A stretch of DNA of 45,844 bases from Notodromas monacha (Eukaryota), in the NCBI GenBank assembly GCA_905338405.1, contig CAJPEX010000070.1:130645-176488 (forward strand), in the 5' to 3' direction. The position numbers were made by a program, and so were the translations under genes. Under the pieces are notes generated by a model, which searched no databases, had not been told where the DNA came from, and was given only the letters and a program-made list of their open reading frames with translations. Below, in pieces: positions 1-42,250 of this stretch. The first letter of the stretch is position 1. The number at the start of each line of letters is the position of its first letter.

Positions 1-26
1 AAAAAAAAGAGAGAAATCCTACCAAG

Positions 27-201
27 CCCCCCCCCGTATCAGGGAACAGACTTCCCCCCCCCCCCCTCTCTCTACTCAAAAATAGGTACAATCCACTGCA
101 CCCTCAATGTCATTGCGGCAGCTGTTGCCAACTTCCACCCTACACTCCCTCTTTGGGGTACACGAGAACCTTTTATTCTCACGCTCCCCCCCCCCCCCTC
201 A
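27..201. repeat. Two long poly-C homopolymer tracts of 14-16 nt each, at ~50-67 and ~185-200, each followed by a (CT)n-like run.
   Basis: ttcccccccccccccctctctctac and ctcccccccccccccctcagccc. A third C9 run lies at 27-36. Confidence 0.6.
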
Positions 202-3200: not shown

Positions 3201-6200
3201 ACGAAGATCAACTCCCGATCTAACCAAACTTCCGCACGAATTATTTCAACTTCGGAAATTGATGGAAGATCATTCCGTCGCGCGAAGACCGAACACCAAC
3301 TGAATGACGGTTATACAGTAAGATGTAGGGAAAAACTTGAACGGTATGGGGTTTTACTGAATTCGAAGCCCAACTTCCGTGCAGAAACGAACAGCCTGGA
3401 CATGAATTTTCCACTACAATGCCTTGATCGCCAGGAATATTTTCGGGAGATTTCGTTGGTGCACCGCTAAGCCATGCAAAAATTCCCAACACACGCATGC
3501 AACCGCAACAATTAAGCCTCCAGCACTGGGAAAATAAGCGGAAGGGGAGCGAGGAACTTCCGAAAGCTAGCGTTTCGAAACCCGGCAGAAAACACGGAAG
3601 TTCAAATTTATAAATCACCGAGCTCTGTCCTTGGTCAACAATGGACGAAAGGTAAGACTCGCCTTCACCTCCCCCGACGTGAAATGCAGGAAACACAGTA
3701 GAATAGAGTAAAATAGGAACCCCAGAAGTAATAAAACTGATGACGAATTTCAATTTGGCTGGATTTTTCGAATTATAAAAAAAACTTTATCTCGCCCTAG
3801 ATTTACAGTACAGTACTGTATGCTACAGTGGGTCCTTCAGCAACAAACCTCGTAGGGTACAACCAACTCAAGATAACAAACCTGGGTTTGGCTGCCTTTT
3901 TTTCCTTAAGCAACAAACTACACGGGAGGAAGAAAATTCAAGCTGAAGAAACCTGAAAGTCAAAAAGCAATTTCACTTTTTCTGACACATTTTAAAATGA
4001 GAAAATAGATAGAATTTGTATTAAAAATCTGAATGGACACACATTTTCACAAAATTTGAATTTATTTTCTGCAATTAATTTCCTCGCTGCTGATTATTTT
4101 TGATGGAATTTATTTGTAATCAACGTTTTTAATTTTACGAACTCAAATTTGTTGGGACCAACAGAAAAACGGCTTCGACTAATCTTTAATCACAGAGGTT
4201 AGAAAAACTGTGGCTGATTGTGAATGGTATTGGAAAAAAATGAGTTAAGGAGAATTTTTACTTGGACGGTTTGAGAGAAAATACTTGTTTTCAATTCATC
4301 ATGCTAATTTCCTGTCTTTCACATCGACTTCATCTTTCGCTGGAACCAATTGAATGATTGTTTTTCTTTTAGAAATGTGCGTCCTCGACAAAAAAGAGAT
4401 AGAGCAATGAACCAGCCACTATAACGGGTTCGGTTTCCTGATCAGGTGGATCTTCTGTACAATAATCTTGTCTACAATTACTGCATATCCTCTGTATAAA
4501 CAATTTTTTGCCCCGTAAGGTTCTTTACTACGTAAATCTCTCTGGAACGATTTTTTCTGGTCCCTTGATTTTGTTGCAGAGAGTGTACACCTGTATTTAC
4601 TTGAATGAAAGAGCACCTTTTCCAATATCAAATCACTGGGTATTATGAATTGATGTCGTCTCAGGTTAGCATACAAAATTACAGGTTGAGAGGGTGGTCC
4701 AAAAATGCGTACTCATTCAAATGATTAATACCTATCGGACATATTTTCCCCCGAGAATGATTTTGAAGCAGGATGTGAACTAAATACAGTACAGCGCAGA
4801 AAAAAAACAACTTGAACTGAAAATGGGCAATATTAATAAATGTCAGCTGGAGTTCTATACACGGCAAGGTTCGCGTCGCTTCTGCTTATATTTACCACTT
4901 GAATGGTTCATTTTTCATCTGTGTACACCCATTGTTCTAGATTCTCGACGATTACGGGAACATGTACACGTATATTTTGCTGCACCGACGAAACTACCGT
5001 GAACGTTTTTGTCTTCACGCTTTCATTTTTTTTAAAGCTCCATATACAGTACAATATATACGAAAATGAAGCACGAAATTTCTCACGAACTTGGAGATCT
5101 GCCGGAGATTTTACGACGGAACTTTCAGAACACGTTTTTCACAGTAGATTTTTCTTCACGGATCCTTTCAAACCTTTCTGAATAACCAAAAATCAAAAAT
5201 AAGTATTGTACTTTACTGTTTCACGGTATAATCATAGCTTGACACGAATTCGTCTCGCTTCAGCGATTTTCACGAAAATCGCGGAGGATCTCAATTGTAC
5301 TTCTGAAAAGGGGAACGAATAGATGCGCATTTTTAGCTATTCAGTCCAGATTAAAGGATACTGCACACGGATGGAGTGGACGTACATTTCAGAACTAGAA
5401 ACATCCGGCAAACGTGTTTTTTAAGCGCCAAGCCACCAACAATAACGACATTTTCAAAGAATCGTTAGTGAGGAAATTAGTTCCATGCGTGGAGCAAATA
5501 ACTAAGAGTAGACGCCGCATATAAACGTAAATTATTGCCGAAAATAGGATAAGAATGATTAATCTAAGAAATGTGTCAATTCGTACCAAAATAAAACATG
5601 AAGCAGCTGAAATGCGTACTGGAACAAGTTTTGTTAAAACGAGTTAAAATTTTTAAATAGAATTGCCAGGAATAAGGAGACCAAAATCAACTTCTCACGT
5701 AGCCTCGCCAAATAGGTCACACTGCATACCATTCAGCGTACCAGACATGACCTACCTCACAGCTTGAGACCCAACCATGCACCGATTTTAGCAGTGTGGC
5801 TCACACAGGTATGTACTTTAGTATGAAATACTCCACTGAATAATTTTTTCATCAATGGTATGTACAACCAATGAAGATTCATTTCTCTAATGGCGAGATA
5901 CTCCCACATTTCTTTGTCCCCTAAAACCGCTCAGGATGAACACAGTACACGAACTATTCAAGGAATTTTTTAAAGTAAAAAAACGATGAATTTTTGGGTA
6001 TTCAAGTTGTGAGCTATTGAGAAATATGGTACTGTACTTACAGGTTATGGCCCATTCATATCATACACATCAGCTACCTTTAGGGGCCCATTTGGGATAA
6101 GGAATAATGAATCCTTGTAAAATAAAAGACTAGTTTTTTAAGCAGCGCTAGGCTTTACAAATCGGGTACCGTACTTCAAAATATTGTTACAACAAAGCTG

Positions 6201-6689
6201 TTATGATCTGGAGAAGACTTCGTGATAAGTGACAACACATTCATTATAAGGCCATTTGAATAACATTGCTAGTGGACAGGGACCTAAAAATGAATAAATT
6301 CTAAGCAAGATTCCATTATAATGAGAATGCTTGCAACAAGATTTTTACTGTACTTCCAGGCATCAATGGCACTGAGATTAAGAGCCCTAAATTAGATTGC
6401 AAGTACAATTCTTGGTGGTATTTTTTATGGAGGAGGTGTTCATGCAAGAATCATTTTTTCCCGTCCATTTGCATGGTCGGTTACACTACCTACCACTTAG
6501 GGATGCAGGTAGACTCTATAACAAATTTCTTTATGCTGGTTTTCTCTGTACAGTTGAATCTCAATGCCTCAAAGCCCTTTAATTCAAATACCTCTGTTGA
6601 AATTTTAAGATTTCTGTCTGAATTCTTTCAAGAACAACACATTACATAATTTTTTCACTTGAACACTTCCACTACAGAACTCTCCAATT

Positions 6690-6880
6690 TCAAATTTTCT
6701 GGAGGCCTTGGGCTATATTATTTTGCGGACTCTGAAGAGAAAAGTACATCGAAAATTTAATTATGTCCTTCAAAATGGAAATGAGTTGATTATGTTCTTC
6801 TACTGGGCAAATGAACCTTTGCCTCGCAAGTTTAGTAACCAGAAGTTCAAGGACTAAAATATCACAAAATTCAACTTCCA
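6690..6880. repeat. Copy of a dispersed ~200-250-bp repeat family (SINE/MITE-like). Other copies are at ~14880-15090 and ~42000-42250.
   Basis: Blocks are shared at about 75% identity. Block 1: ttctggaggccttgggctatattattttgcgg (6705), ttatggaggccttttggctattattttttcg (42063), tgtggatgccttttgggttgtattctgg (14938). Block 2: aatgaacctttgcctcgcaagtt...cagaagttcaaggactaaaat (6810-6860), aatgaacctttgcttccaagtt...cagaagcagttcaaggcccagaat (42166-42235). Block 3: taaaaacctctcttaactcgaag (14884), taaaaacctctataactcgaag (42008). Confidence 0.6.
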
Positions 6881-8630
6881 GCACGTCATCTCCCCCACCA
6901 CTAGCAAAATTTTTTTTTCTCCATAACTCAAAACCTCCCTAAGTCAAGTTGTTTCGCTTGTCCCTGTAGGTTTGAGGTGAAGAGGTTTTATTGTACAGTA
7001 TTGAACTTCTTCAGCTCCTTAAGGGTTCTCTACCCATTTTAGGGGGTTCTCTAAAACAAATTTCTCTCTACGAAGAATTGTTTCTGGTCTCCTGAATTTG
7101 GTGTTAAAAGAGGGCGAGTTCACCTTCATGCTGTTCTACAGTACAGTACTTGAAAATTCGTGCATTTCGCCGCCATTTTTCCAAACGATCGCAATCGCAA
7201 AGGGGGATTTTTCGCATATCACACGAACAATAGATCACACTGGTGCACGCCGCAAGCAACACACGACCGACCAGCACGGTATCCCAGCCATGACTGACAC
7301 CAGAGCGTAACGGGCATTCACCACCGTCGTCAGGAGAGGCGCCGCACGAAGCGGAGACCAAAGGCGGCACACCGCCTGACCATCCACTCGCCAACCGAGA
7401 TACGACACTGTGATATCCGAGGGCCGACGGCGACCGTCGTCTCCGTCGAAATGGCGACGGTCGTCGACACATGGCAGCGCGACACTAGGCCCCCTTCGCC
7501 GAAATGGATCGCGGTCAAGACTGAAGAAATGTTAATGAATAAGCCTGAATTTTACCTAGGTTCTCCACCGACGCGACGGTCAAGAGCGATGCTGCATTCG
7601 ATCCCTTCGTGTTCCATGGTTGTACCCTAATTTAAGCAAATATAAGCACTAGTTTTTTTTTTGTCAATTTTAGAAGCTCAAAAACAGGAGGAGAGCTTAA
7701 ACTGCTTATATTTGCATTTTTGCGATTCGCATCGATGCGGTTTTCACTAGAGTACAACATGCACATTTTTTCTCAAATTCAAGAGGAAAAGATGTCGAGT
7801 GCATCATAGGCAGATTTTTCAAAAAGATTCAGCTGTTTAGGTGTGCATTATACAGTAATTGATTCTAATGGGAAATCTTGGACCAGGTTTAACACAAAAA
7901 CTTATTTTAATGGAAACTTTCAATTCATGGCTAAATTCAAATTTTCGTGTTCTTGTCTTTGAAATACAGACAGACTCTCTCTACAACGAAATTCAAGGAA
8001 CCAGAAAAAAATTGTTTCAGAGAGAATTTTGTTGCACGAAGTCCCTTGAACTTGGAGGTGAGAACCCTATGGGACCAAAAAAATCCGTCATATTGAGAAA
8101 AACGTTGTAGACGAGATCCTTGCAGAGAGACCCCACCTGCATTGCAGTTTCAAACTCACGAAAGATGGGGTGCGTGTCTTACTTTGGGGTTCAATTTCAT
8201 CAGAATAGTTGACAGAACCCCCTGGTGCATGTTTGTAATCGAGGGAACATGGTACAGTACAGTACTTGAGTAAATACCGTATAAGCAACCCTTTTTAAAT
8301 TTCCAAGTCACAGGAGCAATCAAAACAAAAGGAAATACTGTACTTCTTCAGAAATGCTATCCAAGTGTGATTATTCAACATATCTTATTCAAGTAATACA
8401 ACGCCGAAGTTAAATATGCAGACACAGAGAGCCATGTGTCTGTTTCACCTTGTTTCGACACCTTTGATCATTTTCTGGGAAAAACCAAACATTAGTCAGA
8501 AATTGTAGGTTCCTGAAAAGTCAGAACCCCAGAGAGCTAAGGGGTTGCTTAAATTAGACCATCATATACAGTATGAACACTTCTTTCCTGCATGAAAAAT
8601 CTAGGGGGTGCTTACATTCGAGTAATACTG

Positions 8631-9040
8631 AATGGTTGGCCTACTTTTCAGGACAATCGAAACACGTACAGTAAAAATTATTGGTTCCGTCTTTGGTAGC
8701 TTTCGATAAGCTGAGCTGTGCAATGAGTGGTCACGGATTTTTACCGAACCTCACAATAATTCAACGATACTTTTCGGGCTTCAGAAAAATAAACGTTTAG
8801 ATCACTAGGATAACCTCTCCAATCAACTCAATTTTTCGAGTTCAATGACCTGAAACTCTCACGCTGGGAGCGTAAAAACTCGTAATAAATGTTCACCAAA
8901 ACCCGTCAGACACTGAACCCGAGTGTTGCAAATGGTTGGCTTACTTTCGGATATGATGAAAACACGAAGCAATCGTTAGGTTTTATGAGTGGCTTTTGCG
9001 GATCGGCGCAAAATGTTCGCTAAACGCTCAGCTAGAAATA
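8631..9040. repeat. Two local direct repeats of ~110-120 bp, at 8631-8750 and 8931-9040, about 300 bp apart.
   Basis: aatggttggcctacttttcaggacaatcgaaacacgtacag...gagtggtcacggattttt versus aatggttggcttactttcggatatgatgaaaacacgaagc...gagtggcttttgcggatcgg. Confidence 0.5.
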
Positions 9041-12000
9041 ATGTACTTCGAAGACCTTTCGAATTTAGAAAAAAACTCTTTTACGCACTTCAACTCATCG
9101 GATGCACTATTGAAAGTTCATGATTGTCATGACAATGGAAAAGGCTGAATTCGATTATCGGCAGCATCACAGACACTTCCCGTGATTGTCAGTGTTCATG
9201 AATTTTTAAAAGATATTTTATTTCAGGCGGCAAGAAGCATATCACAAATTTTTCAGATGCTCCTCCGAATAGTTACTGCTAGTTTAAAACATATGTTCCC
9301 AAAGCAGCTGATCCCAAACTTAACGCGTTGTAGGAGCATTCCTATATGGATCATTTTTTGCGACATAAAAATTCTTGTGTACAATTGAATTAGTTTTCGT
9401 CAAACAAACAATTTTTGCTTCGATAAAATGAACATCTTGGTCTTCATAGAGCTTCCAATGCATCAACAGCACTGTACAGTACAACGATTCTTCCTTCACT
9501 TCAAAAAGAATTCAACAACATTGTGTTCGCTATAAGAATGGTTTACTACGAACAACAAAACGCATTTGTGAAAGGATTAACTAAGCAAGACTAAATAGCA
9601 CGGCGAATCTACTTACAATAGAAGATGCTCATTTCATAGTTGAGACAATTTCAATTACTGCAATGACGCAGACAAAAAAGAAGGGAAGGTTTTCATCTCC
9701 TAATCGGGAAAAAGTGAACAAAAAACAAGTAGACTTTGTTCTGTGCTTCACACGCCCATGAGTTGTTTATAAACTTGAGACCTGCCGGAAATGTGCAACA
9801 CTGGTCTTTAATTTCGGACAAAAAAGATATAAATGGGAATGTTCAAGGAGGTACAGTACAGAATTGTGGTCTTAGAACTCCACTCTTTGAGCAAAAGATA
9901 TAAGTAACGAACTTGGTTTTTCATTCGAAGAGGAGTAACCGGAGTTCCATGCGCCGAAAATAATGAAGCGGAATGTAGTCGCACATCACTTAACCGGGAA
10001 CCTGGACACTTCCGATCGGAGCACACCATAATTCACGATTGTATCAGCCGGGTTTCATGAGACTATATCGCCGAAAGCTTGTAAACTTCGGCAGCTAAGC
10101 ATGCGAACAGAAGATGGAGCTGAGTCCAACATTCGACCATAACGTAATGCCCGAGGAGTTTAAATCTCATCAAAATGCACGAGGAGCGTTTGAAATGAAA
10201 ACCTTGTCCATCTTGACTCATGCATGCAAAACCAATTGGAATCATGCAAATTTCATGCAATATAAAGGAAGCGCATTGGACATAGTCCACGAGAACGTGG
10301 TATCAACTGAACGATCAACTCGAACAAATAGACGAGAGGTTCGCATAGGAGATGATGACAAACTTCGTAAAACGAACTGCTCTCATCATAATTGTTTGAG
10401 TGACGAGGAAGATATGAATCAAGGTGCACAACTAAAATCGTACGATGTGGCTTACATCAGGTACCTCGACAAGATGCACTTCAAATTCCTCTGCGCTCAC
10501 GGCGGTGTTCGGGAAATCGAAGTTCAAGAGAGATGGATTGGATAAGGTATTCCTCGTGTTCGGTGCCAATAAAGTGGGTTAGTCCTCGCGTTTAGTATCA
10601 GAAATTCAAGATTCAGAATGCATCGAAAAATACACAAGAAACAGATCAAAAATTGCAAAATCAAAGGTAAAATCGAAACAAGGGAAACTGGTGTGCACAC
10701 TTCCAAGCCAGCGAACATACCCGAGTACCCGAAATCAGGAATTTATCTTAAACTTGAGAGCTTTTGAAACATATGATACCTGACTACTGTAATCCCCCAA
10801 ATGTCACGCAGAACATCTAACGAACTAGCAGTACTAGCAAGATATACTCAATTACAGGAGTATCCAGATTCAAATAACATCCATTAAGACACGAACGAAC
10901 CGCTTCCGACCGGTAGCAGCGCGCGAGAGCCAACCTCGTGACACCTGCGGTCACGGCGGGCGAACTGTACGGTTAACTTGCACGCTTCAGCTGGATCCTG
11001 GTGCGGACTTGCTGCAATTGTTCACTTCTCGTCAATAGATGGCATTCTCAATCATAAGCAGACCATAGTGTTTTTTTTCTTTCTAGTTCCAGTCTTATGG
11101 CTTTTTGCCCGACAGCCCTTGCGTACACCTTGGAGGCAACAGCAGCAGTATGATGACGGAACCGAAGATATACTGTACATTCGATTCATTAGACCAAACT
11201 CAATGAAAAATACTGTAGTTCGGTATGAAGGGGACTATGCGAGATTTTGTAAAATTCTTCATGCACAAGGCAGTATATGCCCAGCAGGAGAAATCGTACA
11301 ACAATCTGCATGGTACAAATCTCTGTTGAAATTTGCAGCAGCATATGTCTGTAGTACAGGTAGGTTACATAATTTGGAGAGGATATACAGTAAATATATA
11401 CTGTAATCAATGTATTGTGTATGGCTATATGGTGCTGATAGCGTGTTTCTTATACTGTATATAGAACAAAAAACATGGAATTCATTGATGGCATGAGCCA
11501 TACTAATGTTTTATACGCGATAGTTTTCTTCAAGAAATTTGACTGCTCCCGCTATAGTTAGATATATTGACTTCGCTGATGGTAGAAGTTATATATACAC
11601 GAGAATAATAAAGGTATACACTGATGGTACAGTCGTGTGCTGCGCGCAGCAGTATTGCAAACACTTGTAACGATGACAAACTGGTATAAAATCAATCATA
11701 ACATGAGGCAAATAAACGCTGTGAAAACCCGGCGAAATAAAATTCGAATCTGGTTTGGTTCACTTGATAAAAATGTCAATACGCATTTTCTGCTCGAAAG
11801 CGGCTCTGCATATTGGAATTCTTGTTTTCATTGTTCGATCAAGTACTCCATTGAAGGGCTTCCGGATTTGAACACTGCTGACGATGAAGGTCGAAATCTG
11901 AGCTGCCACTGTAAAATGCTTGGGCGTGAAAATGCGCCTGAAGCAGATAATCTCTGCAAAGGGATTATAAAGACGCATTTCAAGTGTGATATTCCCGGCC

Positions 12001-14879
12001 TCGATGCAGTTTCCAACATCACCTCTGTGCGTATGTATTATTGATGAGGGTCATCGTAATATGTATTAAACGTGGGGTTTATTCCTTCATATCAAAAAAC
12101 ATCACGCACCAGCTAATATTCCAACTTCTTTAATTCCAGAAACTAAAAAAGGTCATCAAAAATTTATGGGATTGAATGTTGATGTCATTTTAATTAACAT
12201 AATACTGTGCATCCTGCAGTAACAAGAATACTCAGCAGACATGCTGGTTATGGTTTAATAATGGCCATTATTCCATTTATTTTTCATTATTTTGTAGTCC
12301 TAAAGTAATTATGTATAATATAATTTGAATGAAACTTGAAAATTTTTTTCTTTTCAACTCTTCTTTTTTCTGACCCATAACAATGGGAGACATTCATGAG
12401 ATGACTTGCAATCATTTGAATGATGCAATGTAGGGCAACTTTTCAGTGTCCAAATACAGTGCAGTATAACTGCAATGCTACTTTTAGTATTATACCAGCA
12501 TCTATATATTGAAACCTCTTCTAAGTTACTTTTGTAACTTCTATCAATCAATGAACAGCAGCTTTATGCATCACAGTAGCCAATTTTTCCTGCAACTACT
12601 GTATATATTTTGTACGGATTAATTTTCTTGGATGCTCCCTGGAACTTTTAAAAATATGTATAATTTTTTTTCATCATGATGATATGACTCATATAGGGTT
12701 ACGCAAGATGGGTTTATAACATTTGGAACTTGAATTTTGTCAGAAAAAGGTTATATAATACAGTACTGTAAATACTTTTGAGTGATATATCAAAACAAAT
12801 ATGATGCAGTAGGGCTTATTTTCATATAATTTCCAACTCATTATTTCAACCAATTAATAGCGTAAATAAGGAAAAATTGAAAATAAAAAATAAAGTCATT
12901 TCCTTATGTTTATCCCGCGCCCCAGCTTAAAATGTTGAACAATTACTGTATATACTGTACTGATCCCAACAAAGCACCTTATCAGAAAAAGTTTCAAGAT
13001 GTATATGTAATTCACTGTACATTATTTGCTATAGTAACAGCTATAGGGTCTTGAAATGCGGTAATAAATGACAAACAAGGAATGAGGACCACAGTACAAT
13101 ACTGTAAGAAAGTGTCCTCTAGCACTAGCTCTGCCATGTTGGTTACTTCACCTCTCCCACCTTAACACTGCATCCCGCTGAACACTGCTGCTCTTGGTTT
13201 GCGGTATTGAAGGTGTGGTTCGTATTCCTGACGAAGAGTTACAGATGTGGGGAGAAATTGCGACATGTGTACGGCTTCGTGAGAAATCATGAATCAGAGA
13301 ATCTGATTCGATGAAACGATCACGTGACAGCCTCTTGCGCTCAGCATTCGAATAGAACGAACGTGTTCTGAAATCCTGGTTCCAGTGTTCGAAATTTATC
13401 CCCGCAAAATTGTTTGTGAGACTCTCGTTTTACGTTTGAAATCTATGCAATTCATGTCGATTTTTTTTTCGAGTGAAAATATGCTCCTGCTGGTGTATGA
13501 TAGTCGATTCAATGGAGCGCAGTGGAAACGCTCGATCCTTTCTAATTATGAGCAAGGATTTTACGTGGCTTGTGATCCGTTACTGATTCCGAGTTGATCA
13601 CGTGCAGGAAAGGGAAGAAACGATGGGGCCAGTGAAATTTTTGTCGGAATTGAGCGGCTTAATTCGACAGAATCTTTGAATTGCTATTAGCGATTCGTTA
13701 TTTTGGCGACACCAGGATCAGCAAGTATGCCGAGTTCCGCGAGTCGAACCTATGCTAGAGCGAGTGTAAATCGAACATTGTTGATCGTCAACTGATGGCG
13801 TCTATGGCGTCAAATTGGTCCTGTTGATACTCCTGTTGAATGTCTGCGAGTTCTTTCGCTCTTCAGAAATGACTTATAGGTCACATTTCCTACGTTGAAG
13901 TACCGTATAGTTGTTGGTGTATTGAAATCACACTTGAAAATAATGGAATCACTCCAAGTACATTTTTTAATAAGCAGGTTATACGCCTTTTTTTCATTTG
14001 ATCTGCCATTTTTCAAGTAAATTTATGAAATATTGCATTCGTTGTAAAGAATAAATTACTTTCTCCCCCTCATTGTATTTAATACGGTATTGTACTGTGA
14101 TTTTAAAAACAGTCAGGAGTCCATCCCGAATGAGGTTCTAATTAGGTAATTGCTTCTTGCTCGCTGACCAAAATTGCTTGTCTAATTGCACGCGTTGATG
14201 TTTATGAACTCTTTCAATTACCGATACCATCAAATGACATATATTCGAAGTTTGACTGTATTGTACTGTATAATAAAATAAGTTCACTAGCCGTACACTG
14301 CATAGGTTCATCATTCGTCACAAGTGTTGGTATCTGATCGAATTAACGTTGGAAGCATATGGTCAATTCGAAGTAATGTTCATAATTTAGGAATACTGTG
14401 CAGTGCAATGGAGGAGAAAACCTGGAGATTCTAGCATTTTAAAAACAATCAATGAGGATGAAATAAAGTCAATGTGTTGTACAATATATGATACTGTACA
14501 TGTAAAGTTGTCCTTGAATAAAAATTTCATATCCATGGTTTGTCATGAAGACACCCTTTGGGACAGTACGCAAATACGAATTTTGTTGGCTTGGGTAAAT
14601 TGATCGGATTACATTAGCTTGTTCTGCTGGAGATTAAGGTAATCTTAGGTGGCTAGCTAGTTTTAGATTTTCAACTTCACATCTCAGTTTGTAAGTTACT
14701 GAACAGGATTCTGACGTTAGGAAACGTGTAGAATTGCGTAGTGCAATAAAGTGCGCCTTACAAATGCTCTTGAGTGACCTGGTTTTGTCTCACCAAACTT
14801 ATGCAGGTGGACCTTGATAACTCAAACCCAAGTACTTCGTGGAATTTTTTCGGACCCTTTCTGAATCTCCTTCATAAAA

Positions 14880-15090
14880 TGTATAAAAACCTCTCTTAAC
14901 TCGAAGAATTCCTCCTCCAACCTCCATAAATATAATTTGTGGATGCCTTTTGGGTTGTATTCTGGTTATTCAGGATATTATAAACACACAAAAAATTTAA
15001 CTTGATGCCGTTCAAAAATAAAAGACTGAAAGCAAACCCCCATTAGAACCGCCTCCGAGTTCTGCATCCTTTCAAACTCATTTATTCTGC
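14880..15090. repeat. Second copy of the dispersed repeat family seen at 6690 and 42000.
   Basis: See the 6690-6880 feature. It also shares aaaaaatttaacttgatgccgttcaaaaataaaag with 42111 aaaaaaatttaacttcatgtgttttaaaagg. Confidence 0.55.
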
Positions 15091-16480
15091 AGTTTAAGAC
15101 CCAAATGATGAAACATTTTGGTTCCCTGCGATTCTTTTGATTGATATTCAGCAAAAACAAAGCTATTTCTCTAGCTGGTAACCTCTCTGAGCTGAATTAT
15201 TTCCTGGTTTCTTGGTGTTCGACTTGAGAGTCTCGGCCGTAGTTTGAAGGAATGGAATATACGTTTGTGGGCATCAAAACAGTCTTTTTGCCCTTGGGAT
15301 CCAATGAAAACGTATAAATGGGGTTGTGTCAAAATTTCTTGCATGCAAAGCCTTCCATATTGGGAAAACATATTGGGAGGATATGCATTTTCATTATTTA
15401 ATTGGATTCGTAATTTTGATGAACAAAGAGGTACAATATGCAACAGTATGAGAAAGGATTTTTGGAAACGTTCAGTTAGACACGTTTTCCAAGTATGATG
15501 ATTGCAGGTTGATTTAAAAGTGCGAATTGCCTGTAACCCGACCGATTAACTAATTTCCCCGGCGAAAATTCGACCGCCTAATAGAGTTTGAAAACCAACC
15601 TATCATCCTAGTCTTATTCAACTTGTGATGTGTACAAGGGAAAGTCTTGTATTCCTGACATTGTTCTGAGATATAAACCATGGAATGCGATGTTCAATAT
15701 CACACGCTGGATTGAAACCACGACCATTAGGACTGTGGAGCCCATTTTAAAATAAATTCACGTGGCGGAGCTCTTGATTTTTTGGCCCAGCCTCTTGCAA
15801 CTTCTCAGTGTTTTAAATTATTACCTTGAGCTTCAGCAAATGAACATACGCTTCTGCCCTTCATACTGCATTTCGGACCTGTAGGTTTGTCTTGCAAAAA
15901 ATTAATCTTTTGGAGCAGCCGCGAAGCACAGGTTGAGATCCTCTGAACAAAGAATTTGAATCATTGTTTGAGGATAATGAAGTCGAAGTTAGCAAATAAG
16001 TGTATTCGTGGATTCCATTTGCGAACGTGTATTTCAGGAAGATTAGATAGCTCCGCTTGTGGATCTAGTAAAATTCACCATTGTATTGAGACACTTACAT
16101 TCCGAGATAAGCTAAGCCTGAGGATGTATCGTATTTCTTTGATCAACCTATGCATGAATTTCTTCCTGCGTGTTCATGGGGGAATTTCTGAGTCTTGAAA
16201 AAAAAAAACCGTGAGTTTCATTTCTTTATTCTCCGTTGCTTAGAAATTTTCCAGAAGACGCAAACGTAAACGTGGCACTTCTCACAAGGACCTCTTTCTG
16301 TTGGCGATGTTTCGATAATCCTACGTTATTCGCGTATTGATCCGCTGCCTTAGCAACCCGAGCAAGAAACAATTCCGCCGCGTTTCTCCGGAACGTGTCG
16401 GTGTTCTGAGCGATAGCTGTGTCACACACCAGCGTTGCATCGTGAAGCTTGGGTCTGTTTAGCTTTTGAAGTGTGATAAA

Positions 16481-19400
16481 ATGGCTCAAAAAGTTGTGAG
16501 TAAACCGTGGGGTCAGCAAGGCCATGCCGGCGTTAGTTTCGAAGGAAGCCAGGAAAATCTGTACCGAGTTGGTCCTCATCAGTACCTACATGTCCTGGAT
16601 TTGACCACGAATGTTACGAGGCTTGAAACTGGACCACAGACTTACATGCGGAAAGACAATGAGAGGTCAGTTGTTGGTGGTTGATTTGTGGCGTCTTGAG
16701 TCGTTTTTTAATGACGTGTAACTTCAGGATTGTTCTGGGACCATGTCAGATGATCATTGTTCCTCCGAGACATTTCTGTATCATTGAAAATCCCGCGCAG
16801 AGGGGAGAAGAAAACCACGTCTTATTAGATTCGTGGGGTCAAGCCAAATTGCAACATGCCGAATTGGAGGTGAGTCACAGTTCACTAGATGATTCGTTTG
16901 CTTATTAAATCAAGGTTATTTTTAGCTATGATCAAACTTTTCCGAAGCCCTTCACAGATGTTTCTGTTAACACAGAGGAGTTCAAGTTTCGTGTAAAACC
17001 GCAGTCACGCGAATAGAAGCACCTCTTAAATATAAGAACCCCCTGCCCCTATATGTTTCATACACAAAATAAGAATTCCATTATTATTCGAATGTAAGCT
17101 TCTACTTATTTTCCCGACTTTTTTACTTTTCAGGAACCTAAAATTTCTGCCTAAATTTCGGTTTCCCCAGAACAGGAAAAACGGTGTCACACAACCCTTG
17201 CTCTTCCCTTTCAGTCGATGACTCTTGCACCTTGATCGTGCTTGCTGTAAAAGCTGACCATTTGTTGTATTTTCAACTTCAATTTCAAAATAACTTGAGA
17301 AAAGGAATGCTCGATCTTTTTCGTGGCCCGAAAACAAGATTTCCTGATACTGTACACTTGTAGACGCATAATTTTTCAAATTTCGTATATGTGCGAATGT
17401 AAGCACCACCGTATTTTTTGAGCTTTTATAAATGGTACTTTTATTCGCGTAAATCTTTTGAATCAGTTTTTTGAAATGGTATGCGATGAATATGCTGTAA
17501 CTGACTTTTCCCCCGTTCAATCTGCGTATACAGTATCGTGTCGGATTGTATGTATTCGCCTTTTAGAATGGTTGAGCAGCAGGTCGACTTCAGTTTTTCG
17601 GTTTTTACTGGTGAAATGTGCACACTCTCAGTCATACAAGCAAACATTTTCACTTGACCCTCGTGGCAATTATCAAGAAATAGTTCGAAATTGAAACTGC
17701 TGAGACGTTTTAAGAATCAGGAATACTGTAAATCAGATCTAGCCCTAGTCCAGATGAGGTTCAGCTTCATGATTCAAGCACCATTCCACCGTAACACTTT
17801 ATGTATGAAATAACGTAATTTTTTTCTGTATACTGAAATGATTCAGAAATTCGTGTAAACCTGCTTGGGATCTCGGTGGGCGATTTATTTTCAACCGATT
17901 TTTGGTCTTTTAGAGTAAGTCCAATAAAGTGTTGTTTGTCCTAGATACGCTTGGAGCAAGACCCGTTTCCGTTGTACCCCGGAGAAATACTTTCCCTCAA
18001 AGTTACCCCCTTGACAGTGGTTGTGAAAGGTTCCGCCCTGAAACTCAGAGCCACAAGGGATTTTTTGGACGGTGGCGTTACGAGGATTGCCGGAGAGATG
18101 TGGCTGTTTGAAGGCCCTGGCGAGTTTACTTTGTAAATACAGTATCTGAGGGCTTTCTCTGAAATAACTGAATTTTTTTCAGGTACTTACATACCGCAAA
18201 AAGAAGTTGAAGTTGTGGAGGAAATCCAGGCGAAGGTCATAAAGGCCAATGAAGCATTGAAACTCCGTGCACTCATGGAGACCCGAGACCGAGATGGGAA
18301 CGTTAGGGTTGCTGGAGAAGAATGGTTGGTAAAAAGGGTTGGAGCTTATTTGCCTGGTGTTCACGAGGAGGTGGTCGCTGTTGTCACGGCCTGGGTCCTT
18401 ACTGAAACTGTAAGTTCATGTCCAGGGTACTGCGAACACGAGAAATTGTCTACAAATTCATTACAGAAAGCTATTCGCATAAAAGCAACGAGAACGTTTG
18501 TGGATCAGTTCAACAAGACGAGGAAAAACGGCGATGAATGGCTGGTGACACATTTGGACACGGAGACGTATATTCCTGGAGTTTACGAAGAAGTCAAAGG
18601 AGAAGTGGAAATAACTGTGCTCAGTAATCGTCAATACTGTGTTATTCTGAACCCTGTGGATGAAACGACTGGGAAGGTTCTGTGGGGACAAAAAAGGCTC
18701 ATGAAGGTTGGTTGAATAATCTCTTGATCTCCTGAATGAATCCTCGAGAGTTCCTTTTGAAGGGTGAGAAATCATTCTTCTTGAGTCCCGAAGAACAACT
18801 GGAGCATGGGATCCAACATGTTCACGTCTTGGGCGAAGACCAAGGATTGATTCTAAGAGCTAATGAACTCTTCAGAGAGACTATCAAAGATCCAGATACA
18901 GGTGCAGAGAAAGTAATCGAACGTAAGCCTGGTGACAGATGGATGATCAGGGGGCCTTTGGAATACGTCCCACCTGTGGAAGTTGAAGTGGTTTCCAAAA
19001 CGGAGACGATTCCTTTGGACGAGAATGAGGGCATCTATGTCAGGGATATCAGAACAGGCAAAGTAAGCGTTTTCTTTACCTTGAGTGATCATAATTTTGT
19101 AGGATATGTTGGTACTGTGTTAGGTGAGAGCTGTTGTTGGGCATACCTACTTATTGAACCAAAATGAGGAGCTTTGGAAGAAAGAATTGCCAGATGCTGT
19201 AGAAAAATTGCTTAGTCAGGGCAGAGACCCGCTTGCTGACAGGGGCACGAGAGGATCCGACAAAAGGTGACATTGCAATTGGAAATTATTTGCGAATGCC
19301 GTTTGCATTTCCAAGTACAATATTTTTCAGTGATTGTCAAGCGCCTCCGAGGGACAAAACAAGAGTCGTTTCATTTCGGGTCCCACACAATGCAGCTGTG

Positions 19401-22250
19401 CAGATTTACGACTATAAAGAGAAGAAAGCCAGGTAACCATCATTTTTTTCATGCAAATTTGTACGGTGAAATCTTGTTACAAAAAACTATGTATCAGATC
19501 TCCGAATAATCAATTGAATCTTGCTTATCTAGAATTCTCATTTTATTTTTTGAAAAAACAGTGATCTTCTGGAAGAAAAATTAGCTTCACTTCTGCATTT
19601 CATTAGTTCTAGAAGATCTCTTCATTCTTTTCATCCTGGGAAGATGATGGGTGGAACCACTTGTAAGCATGTTTCTCATTGATTATAGCTTCCATCCATG
19701 CTGCAAGAACCAGTCAATCACATTTGGGATCAGAAATTTCATTATGTGCCCGCTTTAGTCAGGAAATTTATACCTGGAGAATCTATTCAACATTCCTCAA
19801 AAAAATTTATTTTGAAATGGGAAGTGGGAAGTTTGGTCTAATGAGATTTTCTTAGCATGTACACTGCATGGACTTCTACTGGGACTTGAGAAAAAGTTTG
19901 CTATACTATGCCAACAAATTTGTAGTAGCGGTATTTAATTTAACAAGATTCTACTGGAGTATGGTGCATTATCAAGAGACGTGCTTTCGCAGGGTGATCT
20001 TTGGTCCGGATTTGGTCCTACTCGGCCCAGATGAGCAGTTCACTCAGTTGTCCTTGTCTGGTGGGAAACCGAAAAGACCAAACCAGATCAGAAGCTTGGC
20101 GTTGTTGTTGGGACCAGACTTCTGTGCTGACGTGATTGTTGTGGAAACTGCCGACCATGCGAGACTCAGTCTTTCTCTCGCTTACAACTGGCACTTCGAC
20201 ACAAGTGACAGGTCTGCGAAAGGTGCCGAAAAACTATTCTCTGTCCCTGATTTCGTCGGGGACACGTGTAAAACCATTGCATCTAGGGTCAGAGGAGCCG
20301 TGGCTGGTGTCAACTTTGACAACTTCCACAAGGTAAGATCCGTTGTAATTGTCCTGCTTATTTTCAGTGAATCCCATTCAAGTTTTTTTCCAGAATTCAG
20401 CGCAAGTCATTCGAGAAGCTGTATTCGGCTCAGACGAAACTACGAAGAAGATAAAAGACAAGCTAATTTTCCCTCAGACCGGCCTCACAGTCACCAGTGT
20501 GGACATCCAAAGCGTTGAACCAGTTGATCAAAGAACCAGGGATTCATTACAAAAGTCGGTTCAGCTTGCTATAGAGATCACCACCAACTCTCAGGAAGCT
20601 GCTGCTCGACATGAAGCGGAACGGCTTGAACAGGAAGCGAAAGGGAAGTTGGAAAGACAGAGGATCGTTGATGAAGCCGAGGCGGAGAAGAAAAACAAAG
20701 AGCTTCTGGAGTTGAAGGTTATGAATCATCTTGTTATGGATTGTGCTTATTTCAACCTTTTTGAGGACCAAACTCGAGTGATTGTTCAACTATGTCTTAT
20801 ACCTTAATTCTGTGCAGCTCATGCGTTATTGTAAGAACCCTCCCAAGATTTACGAAATTTTAGAATGACCGCAACTTTAGCGCTCATGAATGTCTCTATG
20901 CTGTCCTGCTCTGGTTGTGAAGAACATTAGCTAGACTGCTGTGAAATGCCGATTTCTGTTCCCATGAACAATATGACATTTCATTTTGCTCTGTGGCTAC
21001 TCCAGGAAAAAATTGACTCAAATCTATGGTCACGTATTAGACTCAACGGAGACGTCTCATGCTCAAAAAAGAGAACTACTCCGTTACCCGAAGAAAAAAT
21101 TGTCCCACTTTGAAACCATTTGTTTTTGACCCCATAGCATGTGCCTCAGGAGGTCCGTCATATGAATAATGAAAGGCCCCGTGAGTCTAAAATAGTCAAA
21201 CCTCTTGACATTCAACTTCGAGGGATTATGAAAAAATTCGAGTTTCGGGAACAAGCATTTTTGTTGGGGGGAAAAGAAGAAGAATTACAGGAAAATGTAA
21301 TTGATGATATTCTGGGCCTTAAATTGCTTCTTGAAATACAGTAGTTGATGGGATGTTGAAGTTGGAGGTAAGGGTTCATCTGCCCAACTAATCTTCCACT
21401 TCTTTTCAAAATGTTCATCAGGTTACATTTTTATTGTCTTTCTCTTTCCTGTGCCGATAAAAAAATAGCAAAAAACCTCCAGAAAATTCGTGATATCCAT
21501 GGGAAGCTTGCGACTTATGGAGGTTTTCAATGCATTGCAATGCTGAGGTAATTTAGAAAGGGACTTCAAAAATTCGACATAATTAGGCATTCCACTTAGG
21601 GAGGTTTCGGTTGTCAAGGTTCAACTGTTTTGGGAATCGCTGTCTCGGGAATTTGATTGCTTTGCTCAATCCAACGTGATCTGGCAAATTAAATTCACAG
21701 GCTGCGTCAGCTGCTGTCGAATCCTGTGGCCAGGCGACAGCGGAAGCCAGAAGCCAAGCTGAAGCTGCCAGGATCCAAAGATCCGCAGAAGTCGAGCAAG
21801 CCAGACTGCGGGCTGAAGCTGGTAGCATTGACCTGGAGGCAGAGCTGGAGAAAATGAATAAAGCCAGGCGTTCGGAGTTGGATTACATTAAGGAGAAGAA
21901 CACTTTGGAGCTTGCTAGAACGAGAGATCTGGCACAAATCGAAGTTGCTAAATTCAAGGAGATGGTAGATGCGATTGGGGCGTCCAACCTGACTGTCATG
22001 GCCTCAGCTGGGCCAGACCATCAAGTAAAGCCATTGTCACGTACAGTACTGTTTTTTTTGTCCAGTGAACTAATCATCTTTCATTTGTCTGCGAAAGGTA
22101 AGAATGCTGGAGGCATTGGGGCTAAAAGCTACCTTGATAACTGATGGAAGAACTCCAATCAACCTTCTCTCAACTGCACAAGGACTGTTGGGAGGATTCA
22201 ATTCGGACTCTGAGCCGCAAGCCAAACGAAGCAGGGAATTTGCGACTTAA
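16481..22250 (+). CDS. MVP: Major vault protein (MVP), complete multi-exon gene. Coding exons: 16481-16665, 16728-16869, 17945-18119, 18183-18409, 18467-18706, 18763-19062, 19124-19266, 19331-19432, 19993-20332, 20394-20717, 21701-22024, 22098-22250 (stop TAA 22248-22250). About 884 aa.
   Basis: Each exon translation aligns colinearly with human MVP as recalled from memory. Examples: [18 protein letters not shown]|[23 protein letters not shown]; [14 protein letters not shown]...WLFEGPG|[15 protein letters not shown]; [33 protein letters not shown]; [18 protein letters not shown]...[18 protein letters not shown]; [25 protein letters not shown]; [29 protein letters not shown]...[33 protein letters not shown]...[34 protein letters not shown]; [66 protein letters not shown]; C-terminal [26 protein letters not shown]. 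All exon phases are consistent across the junctions. Introns are 56-63 nt except two long ones, 16870-17944 and 20718-21700. Intron 3 (18120-18182) uses a GC donor, G|GCGAGT. Confidence 0.9.
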
Positions 22251-23206
22251 TTTGTAATCGGTGACTATATACTGTATTCAGATTTATTATTCAAGCTTTA
22301 AAACAGAATTTATTCACGTCAATCACTAGACCGTGGCTTTCAAATATTGTGCGTACAGGAACACCTAACTGTGATCAGTTGTGCCTCTTTACCTCTATAG
22401 TTTCAAAAACTGGAAAGAATTTATTGTTACATCTTGATTGATTTGGTGCTGATACTGTGCTTACTGTACCTTGGTTATTTGTGGAAGTGCACTTCTTGTG
22501 AGTTATTTTGAATTTCGTCTTCAGTGATCGTTCGAGTGCTAGATGGGATTCTGTGAAGCAGAGAAATGAATTATTCTCAAACCATGTGCCGTATATCATT
22601 TCTTCACTTCAATTATCGAGTATTGGACTGTTGTGCGATGTACAGTAATTTTGTTCATAATATGACCGATTCCTGCACATGATGATTTATCCGGTTTATT
22701 TCTAATTTTCGTCGGAACGTACACTCATCTCTGCCTTAGTTTTGCGTGACAAAATGAAATTTGAGTTCTGGTAAATTTTGAGTTGTAACGGGTACTCTCG
22801 CTGTAACTAAATAATCAACACCAATTCACCCGAGATTCACGTGTACTGTATAGTCACGTACGGTCCGGTACGCTTCGTAACATGCATAATGCAGTACTGT
22901 ATTGAAGGAAAAGCAGAAGGTTTGATGGGTAGAGGGCAGCAGCAATGCATGGCGGCTCCCTAACGATGTTGAGGTTTCACACCACCGAAGTCCCCAAGCT
23001 AGGTTGTTAGCGGTGACCAGACATTATGGTACACTTTCAAACTCAACGCAACTCATTTCCACGCTGCCCCTCCAGAGGGCTATTCCCTACCACTCCATCC
23101 CTCAACACCAAAAATGAGTGACTTCATGAACTGCGCATGCTTGCAGATACGAATTACATGTTGAAGAATTGTGTAGGAGTAGGAAGATAACGTAATATTC
23201 AATACA

Positions 23207-23722
23207 GTACTTTCCTGTTATCTCTGTACCTCATTCCTAGACTGCACTACCATCCAGACAAATCTTTAGGACAAGTTCATAATCACAAGAACCTACCAGA
23301 AACTGTGAATTTTATTTTCTGCATTCTGCTGAAACTGATCAGGTTATGTTAGTTACAAATATATTTTAATTAACATAACCTGACCTAACCTAACTTTACC
23401 TAACTGCCTCCTAAATATCAAATATCTTTAATTAACATAACCTGACCTAACCTAACTTTACCTAACCACCTCCCAAGTATCAAATATCTTTTAATTAACA
23501 TAACCTGACCTAAACTAACTTTACCTAACCACCTCCCAAATATCTTTTAATTAACATAACCTGACCTAACCTAACTTTACCTAACCGCCTCCCAAAATCA
23601 GTTTCAGCAGAATGCAGAAAAATCAAATTCACATCTGTTGTGTATATGAATTTGTCATAAAGATTTGTCTGGATGGTATAGTATGGTCTAGAAATGAGGT
23701 ACAGAGATAACAGGAAAGTACC
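23207..23722. mobile_element. Foldback / MITE-like non-autonomous element. Imperfect inverted arms of ~130 bp flank a central tandem array of about 4.2 copies of a ~60-bp unit.
   Basis: The left arm gtactttcctgttatctctgtacctcattcctagac...catccagacaaatcttt...ctgtgaattttattttctgcattctgctgaaactgat is the reverse complement of the right arm atcagtttcagcagaatgcagaaaaatcaaattcaca...aaagatttgtctggatg...gtctagaaatgaggtacagagataacaggaaagtac. The central unit (23340-23590) is ttaattaacataacctgacctaacctaactttacctaacNgcctcccaaatatcaaatatct. Each unit contains (CCTAA)2, i.e. TTAGG-type telomere-like dimers. Confidence 0.7.
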
Positions 23723-24285: not shown

Positions 24286-26741
24286 ATGGCTGCACTCGAG
24301 CATTTCGTTCATAACGTTCGGACACTCTCCAGCCAAGGTATCGTACAGATCGCGGTTTTTATCTTTCTGACATTCACGCAAGTTGAACATGATTTCAGGA
24401 AATCTCAAGCAACTGACGGAGTATCTCGGGAAGTCTGCAGATTTGCTCTCGAAACACCAGTTGCAGTTAGATAGCGTTCTTCAAACGCTGGATTTACAGC
24501 AGCATTCTCTGGGAATCCTGGCTATCCTGTTGGTGAAATTCAACAGTGTCGCCGTTACATCGGACGCCTTCGAACCCCTGTTCGTTCAGTTTCACGAGTT
24601 CATTCTTGGCTGCAACGGTGAACAGATCCGGTTTGCTGCAGACTCATGTAAGTGTAGAACTTCATGCGCTTTTGTTATAATTTTTTTAGGTGCAACCATT
24701 ACATCTTCTGCTCGTACTTTCATGGTATACTGTAGTTCGTATTATTTCTGAACCCCTTATTATTCAGTTGCAGAGCTATGTCACTTGTGCACTGAAGCTC
24801 TGACGGAACGAAGGAAGCCAGCGATGGGAATTCCTGCAATGAAGTCAGTGTGTTTTTCAAGCAATTGTTTTAGAGGATTAATTTTCATTTAATTTCAGGG
24901 AAGCGTTAATCAAGTTACAATCAAAAGAGTCGCAGTTGACTTCTATCCACTCTGATCTACTGAGGCTGTGTCTACTTGCGCGAAATTCCACTGCGCCGCT
25001 TCACTTACTGGAAATAGACATTGATGATATAAATCGTGAGGTATGAACACTGAAAACTTGTTCATAAAATTATTCGACCCACGCTCAATTAAAATATTTT
25101 ACAGAACGGCCAGATGGATCCAAAGTACGTTCTATTGTATTATTATTACGGAGGAATGATCTACGCAACCCGCAAGAACTGGGAAAATGCCCTTTTCATG
25201 CTGTCAATGTGCATAACAACGCCTGCCATGGCTGTTTCACACATAATGTTGGAGGCCTACAAGAAGCATATGCTCATATCTCTTATCCATATGAAAAAGA
25301 TTGTTCCGTTGCCGAAGTACACTTCAGGAGTGGTTAACCGTTTTTTCAAGCATCTTGCTCTTCCGTATCATGACCTCGCCACCGCATTTTCGCACAACGA
25401 CTCAATCGAATTTGAGCAAGTGATGGCCCGACATTCGGATGCTTTTGTGAGGTTTGTAGACATTTTCGTTTGAGTTTCAGAGTTACTGTATTAATTTCTG
25501 TTCACTTATGTTACTGGCTTTATTTTTTAAAACTTCGTTTTGTTTCCTGACGCGAAGTCGCTATCTTTTCGGACAAATTCGGCCGAGTTAAACGTTGTTG
25601 CAAATATTCAGTGTGGCATAGTACAGTATCGCGATCTTGGTGAAATCGTGAACTTCAAAAATGTTAAATCAGTAAATTTTAAGTAAGTTTCGGGTTTCTT
25701 TTTGTATTGTAACTAGATAATGCAGTATTCAAGCGAGTATTTTCGTCGCCGATTTCCGAACGTCGTCAGTGACAATTATTTCATTATTTGGTTTTAGCAA
25801 TTAATTTTTTGACTAACCATCACATTCCTTCTTCGGCTGATTTTTTTCTGTTCTCAATTTCAGATTAAAAAAAAATTCTATATCTCCCGGTTTGTGGATC
25901 ACGCTGCTAACCTTTTTTTCATGTAAATCTTCAATTTTGGTAAACAATCTATTTCAGGGATCAGAACATGGGATTGGTAAAGCAATGCCTGAGCTCTCTT
26001 CACCGAAAGAACATCCAAAGGTTGACAATGACGTTTATGACGCTATCATTGGAGGACATGGCGAATCGTGTAAAGCTTTCTGGTCCTCAGGAAGCTGAAC
26101 GATACGTGCTGGAAATGGTAAACACTTCCCCTGATAATTAAAGTACGATTCATGACGATAAAATCACTACTGTTGAGGAAGGATTGTTGAATTGCCACCT
26201 CGAACAGTAGTACAGTACTGTACTTTAAAAATGCAATGCATTTTCAGATAGAAGATGGTGATATATACGCAACAATTCACCCTGATGACGGCATGGTCGA
26301 ATTTCAAACAAATCCTGAAAATTACGAAAGCATGTCGGTGTTGGAGCAGCTTAAGGCAGCAGTGAGTTGCTTTGTATTTTCTTTCCCATTTATGTCGATG
26401 ACGAACATTTTTGCCTAGATTCGCCGCTTATCTTGAGCGCGGAATGAGAGTTAGCTGATAAGAGCTGATGCTGAGTTCAATTGTAAATTAGTTTTTAAAG
26501 CAATTTAGTTTCTGATCAGGCACATTTTTTGTTTTTACAGATGGAGGCGAGCATGCACTTGGAGAACAAAGTTCAAAAAATGAGCGATGAACTTTCTGTT
26601 AATCCCGAGTTCGTGAAGAAAATGTCGAGTTTGAGCCAGGAAGACGAAGGGACGTCTTGTGCGTCAGGTTCGTCGTCATCCACGTCCGTTCCGAATGCGC
26701 AACCAGCCAAAGCGTCGTCCGCTTTCGCTCCTCGACTCTAA
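24286..26741 (+). CDS. COPS3: COP9 signalosome complex subunit 3 (CSN3, PCI-domain protein), complete. Exons: 24286-24337, 24399-24647, 24768-24849, 24899-25040, 25105-25451, 25958-26117, 26248-26361, 26541-26741 (stop TAA). About 448 aa.
   Basis: Translation is colinear with human COPS3 as recalled from memory. Examples: [18 protein letters not shown] vs MASALEQFVNSVRQLSAQG; [13 protein letters not shown]...[12 protein letters not shown]; [25 protein letters not shown]; [17 protein letters not shown]; [53 protein letters not shown]...[12 protein letters not shown]; [51 protein letters not shown]; [26 protein letters not shown]; [19 protein letters not shown]. Splice phases check at every junction. 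Donors are GTATCG, GTAAGT, GTGTTT, GTATGA, GTTTGT, GTAAAC and GTGAGT. Acceptors are ...TTTCAG / ...TTACAG. Confidence 0.9.
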
Positions 26742-27935: not shown

Positions 27936-28025
27936 AACGGAAATTAAAATTTTTCCGTTCGCAAATTCTAGATACAGTACTTTCTTCTAGCTTTATCAAA
28001 GATTTCATCTCTTTTCTGTCTTGAA

Positions 28026-29048
28026 ATGCCGCCGATCGTGATCGGGATTGGCGGGTGTTCGTCGAGTGGCAAAACCACGCTTGCGTCTTGGCTAGCCCGT
28101 TGCTATAAAAAGCCTGTCGTGATCTCGTTAGATAAATTCTACCTCATGGAAGATAACCCGAAGTTAGAGAAAGTGATTCCGGAATTGAACATGTTCAACT
28201 ACGATCACATTTCGGCGTTCGACGTTCGTGCTATTGTACGAGCTGTCAAAGACGCTATAAGAAAGGAATCCATCGATCTCGTTGTGGTGGAGGGAATCGT
28301 TGTGTTCGAGATTCCTTCGCTTCAAGACTTTTTTACTCGAAAGTGAGTGAATTTTACTGTATATTTATTCGATATCACGTGTGGCATACAATTTTGTGCT
28401 CTTTTAATGATGCTGTACCCGCAAACCTAGCAGAAATCTTGGCGTTGTTGTATTTTCAGGTATATTCCGTTTATGCATTTTCTTTCTACTCAAAATCACT
28501 AGAAACTATTGATTTAACGTAAAATCTCGAATTGTTTCAAGTTTTCAGTCGTTTTCTATGTGTTTTCTGCTTTTGACATTCTCTTTTAGGTCACCTTCTG
28601 TGGTGTAAAGAGATGTTCAATGACTTAAACGTATAATCAATAATTTGATTGAGTGTATTATTTTGAAATTTTTTTTACACCCTCATTTTTTGTGCGATCG
28701 TATTTCACACCTGTTTCTGTTGATCAGAATCGAAAAAAGTGCATCTTCCATTCTCATGAATACGGGAAAATTCTATGTGAGCTCGTGCTAAGGTAGTACG
28801 ATGTACATTTTTCCAGGTATTTTCTGAAGCTTGATTCTGAGGAATTCAAAAGACGTCGAAAACTTCGGGTTTATCCAGGCGCACCAGACTGCGATAAATA
28901 CGTGGAAAATTTTGTATGGCCTGGTTATCTGCACTTCCTCGATGGAGCCCAGAATCAGGAGAAGATGGTGTTTCTTGATTCGACTTACCTTACTTTGGAA
29001 CAGATGTTCTCGATAATTAAGCGAGATCTGCCACAAGAATCACATTGA
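28026..29048 (+). CDS. NMRK: Nicotinamide riboside kinase (NRK/NMRK family P-loop kinase), complete. Exons 28026-28342 and 28817-29048 (stop TGA 29046-29048). About 183 aa.
   Basis: MPPIVIGIGGCSSSGKTTLASWLARCY... matches the NRK P-loop (human NRK1 GISGVTNSGKTTLA). Exon 2 reads YFLKLDSEEFKRRRKLRVYPGAPDCDKYVENFVWPGYLHF, matching NRK1 YFLTIPYEECKRRRSTRVYQPPDSPGYFDGHVWPMYLKY. The donor AA|GTGAGT (28343) and acceptor tttttccAG (28815-16) are phase-consistent and rebuild a split K codon. The ATG lies only 90 nt downstream of the preceding gene's stop. Confidence 0.8.
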
Positions 29049-29586: not shown

Positions 29587-32952
<3,366 letters not shown>

Positions 32953-41999: not shown

Positions 42000-42250
42000 A
42001 TGCATTAAAAACCTCTATAACTCGAAGGTTTTTCCCGTAAACCCCCATAAATCGAATTTTATGGAGGCCTTTTGGCTATTATTTTTTCGACACGAGGTAA
42101 TGAAATTAAAAAAATTTAACTTCATGTGTTTTAAAAGGAAGTGAAGGACTACAGTAATTGAGAAAATGAACCTTTGCTTCCAAGTTCAACACCCTGTCAA
42201 CTCATTTCAGAAGCAGTTCAAGGCCCAGAATCTCATCCTTACAATTTTTC
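42000..42250. repeat. Third, longest copy of the dispersed repeat family.
   Basis: It contains all three shared blocks listed for 6690-6880 and 14880-15090. Confidence 0.6.

Follow-up and report, generated by a model that had tools for sequence, protein, structure and literature searches.

Major vault protein (MVP) has been described from mammals and, among crustaceans, from the salmon louse and several further lineages. In 2013 Daly et al. reported no arthropod MVP (PMC3762200), while a 2024 study of the salmon louse recorded orthologues in 41 ecdysozoan taxa, with copepods, a barnacle, Argulus, chelicerates, early-branching hexapods and two marine nematodes as MVP-bearing groups (PMC11219742). 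Six or seven independent losses were inferred there, including those in Pterygota, Malacostraca, the Daphnia and Artemia groups (Branchiopoda), Acari and tardigrades, and contaminant MVPs were flagged in some arthropod data sets, namely in insect and isopod data (PMC11219742). The same paper cites work in which MVP alone assembles in heterologous cells. Ostracods are not named in the text of PMC11219742 or in those of its supplements that were searched, and our literature search found no paper that treats MVP together with ostracods. Here we describe the MVP gene carried by a stretch of 45,844 nucleotides (the window) of contig CAJPEX010000070.1 from Notodromas monacha, a podocopid ostracod (Pancrustacea, Oligostraca).

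An intact MVP gene of twelve exons

Twelve exons were spliced from the three-frame forward translation of positions 16000-22800 and gave a coding sequence of 2655 nt (884 aa) with no internal stop. The ATG that opens the reading frame is at 16481, with an in-frame TAG ahead of it at 16460, and the frame closes with TAA at 22248-22250. Ten of the 11 introns are GT-AG and one is GC-AG, and all splice sites are usable. A preliminary description, made from the letters of the window and their open reading frames, had placed the gene at 16481-22250 with a product of 884 aa, and joining the exons at their splice sites reproduced both figures exactly.

Comparison of the 884-aa protein with Pfam revealed all five MVP families (four Vault families and MVP_shoulder) far above their gathering scores, namely Vault at 7.2e-62 in four stretches, Vault_2 at 8e-33, Vault_3 at 1.3e-35 and Vault_4 at 1.5e-20. 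The Vault repeats (PF01505, PF17794, PF17795 and PF17796) occupied the N-terminal ~545 residues, while the SPFH-like MVP_shoulder (PF11978, 1.2e-49) covered residues 545-663 and matched profile positions 1-118 of 118; these are the Vault and MVP shoulder profiles with which the preliminary description had proposed to check the protein. The phmmer search against the PDB returned the rabbit, human and rat MVP chains at E=0 and 1095-1104 bits, and the alignment was collinear, with residues 23-877 of the window MVP facing residues 3-860 of the PDB chains.

The window MVP and rabbit MVP (9z4w_A) were 59.6% identical over 866 columns. Identity per domain ranged from 49 to 76% (R1 and R5 49%, R9 76%, shoulder 63%, cap-helix 61% and cap-ring 58%), with approximate boundaries after the 2009 rat vault structure paper. 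The cap-helix and cap-ring region showed no large gaps against residues 647-845 of rabbit MVP, at 58-61% identity. The expectation that identity to human MVP would exceed 50% in every domain was essentially correct (59-60% for the protein as a whole in the Foldseek comparison below), with R1 and R5 at 49% in the comparison with rabbit. Among 245 columns that are invariant across 19 other full-length metazoan MVPs, 231 (94%) were kept, a retention similar to that of barnacle, scorpion and rotifer and above that of Argulus in the same alignment. Decay of the gene is not suggested by any of these results.

An AlphaFold2 (AF2) monomer model was built from a 30-sequence alignment and used solely for secondary structure, domain order and local fold matches. 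In the prediction, beta-rich repeats were followed by an alpha/beta shoulder (549-661) and this in turn by long helices across 664-818 (664-730 and 738-818). With this model as query, the top 17 Foldseek matches in the PDB were all MVP, at E ~1e-73 and with 58-60% identity to the human and rat proteins. The scan for bacterial promoters and terminators was empty and is irrelevant to a eukaryote. Positions 16481-22250 are an intact full-length MVP gene with every MVP domain in the mammalian order and spacing, and the preliminary description was right to call it intact, full-length and highly conserved.

The top database match of the window MVP was the public N. monacha model P0001, an 899-aa "unnamed protein product" with the UniRef name "Major vault protein"; the next matches among those listed were only 62-67% identical. 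Outside one site, where P0001 has 15 extra residues, the two models are 100% identical. P0001 was regenerated exactly from the window when intron 3 was read into and an 18-nt GT-AG gap at 18133-18150 was taken out, which skips a TAA. Because P0001 is encoded exactly by the window, the window is N. monacha DNA. The 63-nt GC-AG intron 3 was the only choice that restored the invariant motif WLFEGPGTYIP, and it was preferred over the 18-nt pseudo-intron because of this restoration and because its position is common to all four species used in the intron comparison below. The 15-residue insertion of P0001 is, as judged from the splice-site comparison, spurious and would derive from the missed GC-AG intron 3. 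The correction is relevant to anyone expressing or modelling the protein.

Taxonomic placement and state of the gene

Since contaminant MVPs had been reported (PMC11219742), the placement of the window MVP was examined. A neighbour-joining (NJ) tree was constructed from 21 sequences and 842 columns using Kimura distances and 200 bootstraps; the supplement of PMC11219742 supplied the MVPs of barnacle, copepod, Argulus and rotifer. The window MVP lay within a monophyletic Arthropoda in 99% of the bootstraps and was adjacent to barnacle, copepod and Argulus (Pancrustacea bootstrap 44.5%), apart from the rotifer and the molluscs. Its C-terminal motif VRMLxxLG is of the crustacean type, as in barnacle, copepod and Argulus and unlike the rotifer or deuterostome versions. 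The downstream gene for COP9 signalosome subunit 3 (CSN3), for which the model is approximate, matched an N. monacha protein encoded on the same 216,852-bp contig as P0001, and its next best named matches were from orthopteran and other insects. We conclude, with a probability of about 0.9, that the gene is the single, intact and vertically inherited MVP orthologue of the ostracod N. monacha.

The preliminary description had assigned the window to a compact, nematode-style genome, so that the MVP would represent an unexpected phylogenetic occurrence, and had cited short introns and TTTCAG acceptors. Eight of the introns are indeed short (56-73 nt), but a length of about 60 nt is nothing unusual for an arthropod intron. 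Two acceptors do read TTTCAG, which at 2 of 11 is weak ground for calling the hexamer typical. The taxonomic assignment which the description had itself proposed pointed elsewhere, as the best matches for both MVP and CSN3 were those of N. monacha (Ostracoda) and not of a nematode. The exact encoding of the N. monacha protein, the insect relatives of CSN3, the 99% bootstrap for Arthropoda and a haploid genome of ~385-425 Mb (PMC8049415) all stand against a nematode-like source. This candidate was rejected and we give it practically no credence.

A contaminant in the ostracod assembly, whether rotifer, mollusc, protist or food organism, would make the MVP foreign to N. monacha. Raw identity in fact peaked with molluscs and a cnidarian (66-67%), not with arthropods, among the matches listed, and the homologues listed hold no second ostracod sequence as comparator. 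The high identity to molluscs can be put down to their short branches. The position within Arthropoda, distant from the rotifer, the crustacean-type C-terminal motif and the insect-like CSN3 on the same 217-kb contig argue against a foreign origin, as does the filtering of the assembly for contaminants with Blobtools (PMC8049415), and we consider contamination very improbable.

Several points weigh against an intact, vertically inherited and vault-forming MVP of the ostracod itself. The tree was obtained with one distance method and 21 taxa, and no second ostracod MVP was present among the homologues listed, which leaves no close comparator for the ratio of nonsynonymous to synonymous substitution rates (dN/dS). 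The GC-AG splice and the expression of the 884-aa model are predicted from genomic sequence, conservation does not extend to the start codon or the N-terminal 22 aa, and neither AATAAA nor ATTAAA occurs in positions 22251-23400, that is, within 1.15 kb past the stop. The AF2 model was globally poor, with a mean predicted local distance difference test score (pLDDT) of 59 and a predicted template-modelling score (pTM) of 0.28, and does not support the extended shape. Vault assembly itself is deduced from domain conservation and from the published assembly of MVP alone, and neither TEP1, PARP4 nor vault RNA was found in the 45.8-kb window: the Pfam scan of all open reading frames (ORFs) of at least 50 aa on both strands gave no TEP1 or PARP4 domain, and vault RNA (Rfam RF00006) had no match in the window at the gathering threshold nor in 16000-22800 at E<=1.

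Some of these points, namely the merely predicted expression and the lack of a canonical poly(A) hexamer downstream, together with two swollen introns of which one carries a repeat insertion, would also suit a recently inactivated or unexpressed pseudogene heading for loss, the fate that the gene met in Pterygota, Malacostraca and Branchiopoda. Such a pseudogene would have to have kept 2655 nt over 12 exons without stop or frameshift, every splice site in usable form and 94% of the pan-metazoan invariant residues, and we regard it as highly unlikely. The reading of an intact ostracod orthologue is retained in what follows.

Introns and neighbouring features

The intron positions were compared with those of the MVP loci of Limulus, Nematostella, Lottia and a millipede, in which the exon ends, taken from ungapped tblastn, are accurate to ~3 aa. 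Nine of the 11 intron positions of the window MVP were common to at least one of the four, in agreement with the orthology indicated by the tree, while four introns present in all of them (at aa 367, 571, 689 and 771) were missing from the window gene. The position of intron 10 was found in none of the four; it lies at an AAG/G site between aa 689 and 771, two of the ancestral intron positions that are lost here. The length of intron 10 is 15-fold that of a usual intron. The coordinates of the exons, of the introns discussed and of the other features are given in Table 1.

The preliminary description had noted two introns of about 1 kb and suggested that they may carry embedded elements. The two are introns 2 and 10 (1075 and 983 nt), and a third long one, intron 8 (560 nt), had escaped notice. 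As to embedded elements, intron 10 holds a copy of a dispersed repeat and introns 2 and 8 hold nothing convincing: intron 2 has a 65-nt match to positions 8457-8521 and in intron 8 no repeat was found. The family to which the intron 10 copy belongs, an unclassified interspersed element of ~300-400 nt, has four copies in the 45.8 kb and lacked a coding signal, a tRNA-like part and clear terminal inverted repeats. Pfam searches of six-frame translations of introns 2, 8 and 10 gave one chance-level match and no transposase or reverse transcriptase remnant. Rfam had no match of any family in the whole window at the gathering threshold, nor over 16000-22800 at E<=1, intronic snoRNA included, ARAGORN identified no tRNA or tRNA-derived element, and the search for inverted and direct repeats in the long introns yielded short weak pairs only, with no clear terminal inverted repeats. 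Intron 10 could represent a lineage-specific gain in a gene that otherwise loses ancestral introns and, if seeded by an element, an 'introner'-like event in an ostracod, a proposal which we consider unlikely.

Table 1. Coordinates of the MVP gene, its exons and selected introns, and other features in the window
Feature	Position	Strand	Remarks
MVP gene, ATG to stop	16481-22250	+	12 exons, 11 introns, 884 aa
Exon 1	16481-16665	+	first 22 aa a non-conserved N-terminal extension, then repeat R1
Exon 2	16728-16869	+	
Intron 2	16870-17944	+	1075 nt, phase 0, after aa 109; position as in Nematostella
Exon 3	17945-18119	+	
Intron 3	18120-18182	+	63 nt, GC-AG, donor ctg/GCGAGT; position common to all four comparison species
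Exon 3/4 junction in the 884-aa model	across 18120-18182	+	CCCTG/GTACTTAC
Exon 4	18183-18409	+	
Exon 5	18467-18706	+	
Exon 6	18763-19062	+	
Exon 7	19124-19266	+	
Exon 8	19331-19432	+	
Intron 8	19433-19992	+	560 nt; position conserved in all four comparison species
Exon 9	19993-20332	+	last part of R9 and beginning of shoulder
Exon 10	20394-20717	+	remaining shoulder and start of cap-helix
Intron 10	20718-21700	+	983 nt, phase 0, after aa 726
Dispersed repeat copy in intron 10	21237-21535	+	~300 nt
Other copy of the intron 10 repeat	42000-42304	-	~70-73% identity (range for the three other copies)
Other copy of the intron 10 repeat	36520-36717	+	as above
Other copy of the intron 10 repeat	14884-15007	-	as above
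Exon 11	21701-22024	+	cap-helix
Exon 12	22098-22250	+	cap-ring, C-terminal tail, TAA stop
CSN3 gene	24371-26738	+	Pfam COP9_hel_rpt 4.6e-65 and PCI
Small P-loop kinase-like gene	27972-29045	+	GIGGCSSSGKTTL motif
Gene with two cytidylyltransferase-like domains	30956-32952	+	Pfam CTP_transf_like 2.9e-34

Besides MVP, the Pfam scan of the window ORFs identified only CSN3, a weakly scoring P-loop kinase and a pair of cytidylyltransferase domains. The public N. monacha CSN3 model (P0121) has 525 aa, compared with ~400-460 aa in most of the orthologues listed, and may be over-extended. The P-loop kinase-like gene gave sub-threshold Pfam matches only (AAA_18 with 25.7 bits against a cut-off of 29.4, PRK with 16.8 bits) and by eye resembles nicotinamide riboside or uridine kinases. 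The layout of the two cytidylyltransferase-like domains is that of ethanolamine-phosphate cytidylyltransferase (PCYT2).

The 16 kb on the 5' side of MVP (positions 1-16480) contained no Pfam-detectable coding sequence on either strand; the region is either gene-poor or the home of lineage-specific genes. A GC-richer patch at ~7000-7650 carries long overlapping ORFs on both strands. Two open frames of more than 180 aa on the reverse strand, at 38299-38916 and 43333-43884, one of them rich in Ser, Gly and Thr and the other containing repeated 'ASSPANL' units, had no Pfam match and could represent exons that encode disordered or lineage-specific proteins. About 1 kb on the 3' side of MVP, positions 23207-23721 form a foldback-like structure whose inverted arms (23207-23339 and 23597-23721) are 83% identical and flank a tandem array of four 63-nt units at 23356-23600. 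A second pair of dispersed repeats lies inverted near the ends of the window, at 2560-2868 on the forward and 45091-45412 on the reverse strand, with ~68% identity over ~320 nt.

Predicted vault assembly and comparison with known systems

The conservation of the MVP domains suggests that N. monacha plausibly builds vault particles. By homology, 78 MVP copies would make up the vault shell; in such a barrel the cap-helices would bundle into two caps and the N-terminal repeats would meet at the waist, where the non-conserved 22-residue extension would be predicted to face the lumen. By analogy, the ostracod MVP may act in the cytoplasm as a container or scaffold, and it may in addition have an extracellular structural use like the one reported for the salmon louse.

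A genuine MVP might also be used mainly outside vaults or as extracellular structural material, comparable to its use in salmon-louse cement material. Such a use has been shown in that crustacean, whose genome yielded no vPARP or vault RNA (PMC11219742), and neither was found in our window. Yet the domains relevant to assembly are as well conserved as in species that form vaults, and the salmon louse has three paralogues, which permit specialisation, whereas one copy is seen here. A mainly extracellular role is thus unlikely, and extracellular and vault roles are not mutually exclusive.

The window MVP is an ordinary gene, known in kind and found in an expected place. It is not novel, because Argulus already represents Oligostraca and because the N. 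monacha protein had already been deposited and named. The preliminary description had presented an MVP here as a surprise, a view overtaken by the published record for crustaceans and most ecdysozoan lineages (PMC11219742). The significance of the gene is low and consists in an explicit genome-level data point from Ostracoda for an MVP that was ancestral in Ecdysozoa and repeatedly lost. By-products are the corrected MVP gene model and an intron that may be specific to the lineage.

Compared with mammalian MVPs (rat 4V60/4HL8, human 9BW5, rabbit 9Z4W), the window MVP has the same length and the same order of nine repeats, shoulder, cap-helix and cap-ring, and it is collinear with them over the range given above at 58-60% identity. 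It differs from rabbit MVP by a small insertion in R7 (~residues 361-372) and by a deletion of ~9 residues in a shoulder loop, and from the mammalian proteins by the 22-aa non-conserved N-terminal extension; particle formation by the window MVP is a prediction. SPFH cage proteins are known distant relatives of the MVP shoulder. In agreement with this relationship, SPFH/band-7 proteins (stomatin, prohibitin, flotillin and HflK/C) appeared as secondary Foldseek matches to the shoulder and the following helix, at E 1e-5 to 1e-3. These proteins share 11-20% identity with the window MVP over the shoulder and helix only and lack Vault repeats, and the window MVP is not a member of their group.

The crustacean MVPs, among them LsMVP1-3 of Lepeophtheirus salmonis and those of Acartia, Amphibalanus and Argulus, fall in the same pancrustacean group as the window MVP (44.5%) and share its C-terminal motif. 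The salmon louse carries three MVP copies against the one seen here, and its LsMvp2 and LsTep1 are arranged head-to-head, whereas no TEP1 lies beside MVP in the window. The ostracod gene agrees with that of Argulus in indicating that Oligostraca kept MVP while Branchiopoda, Malacostraca and the winged insects lost it.

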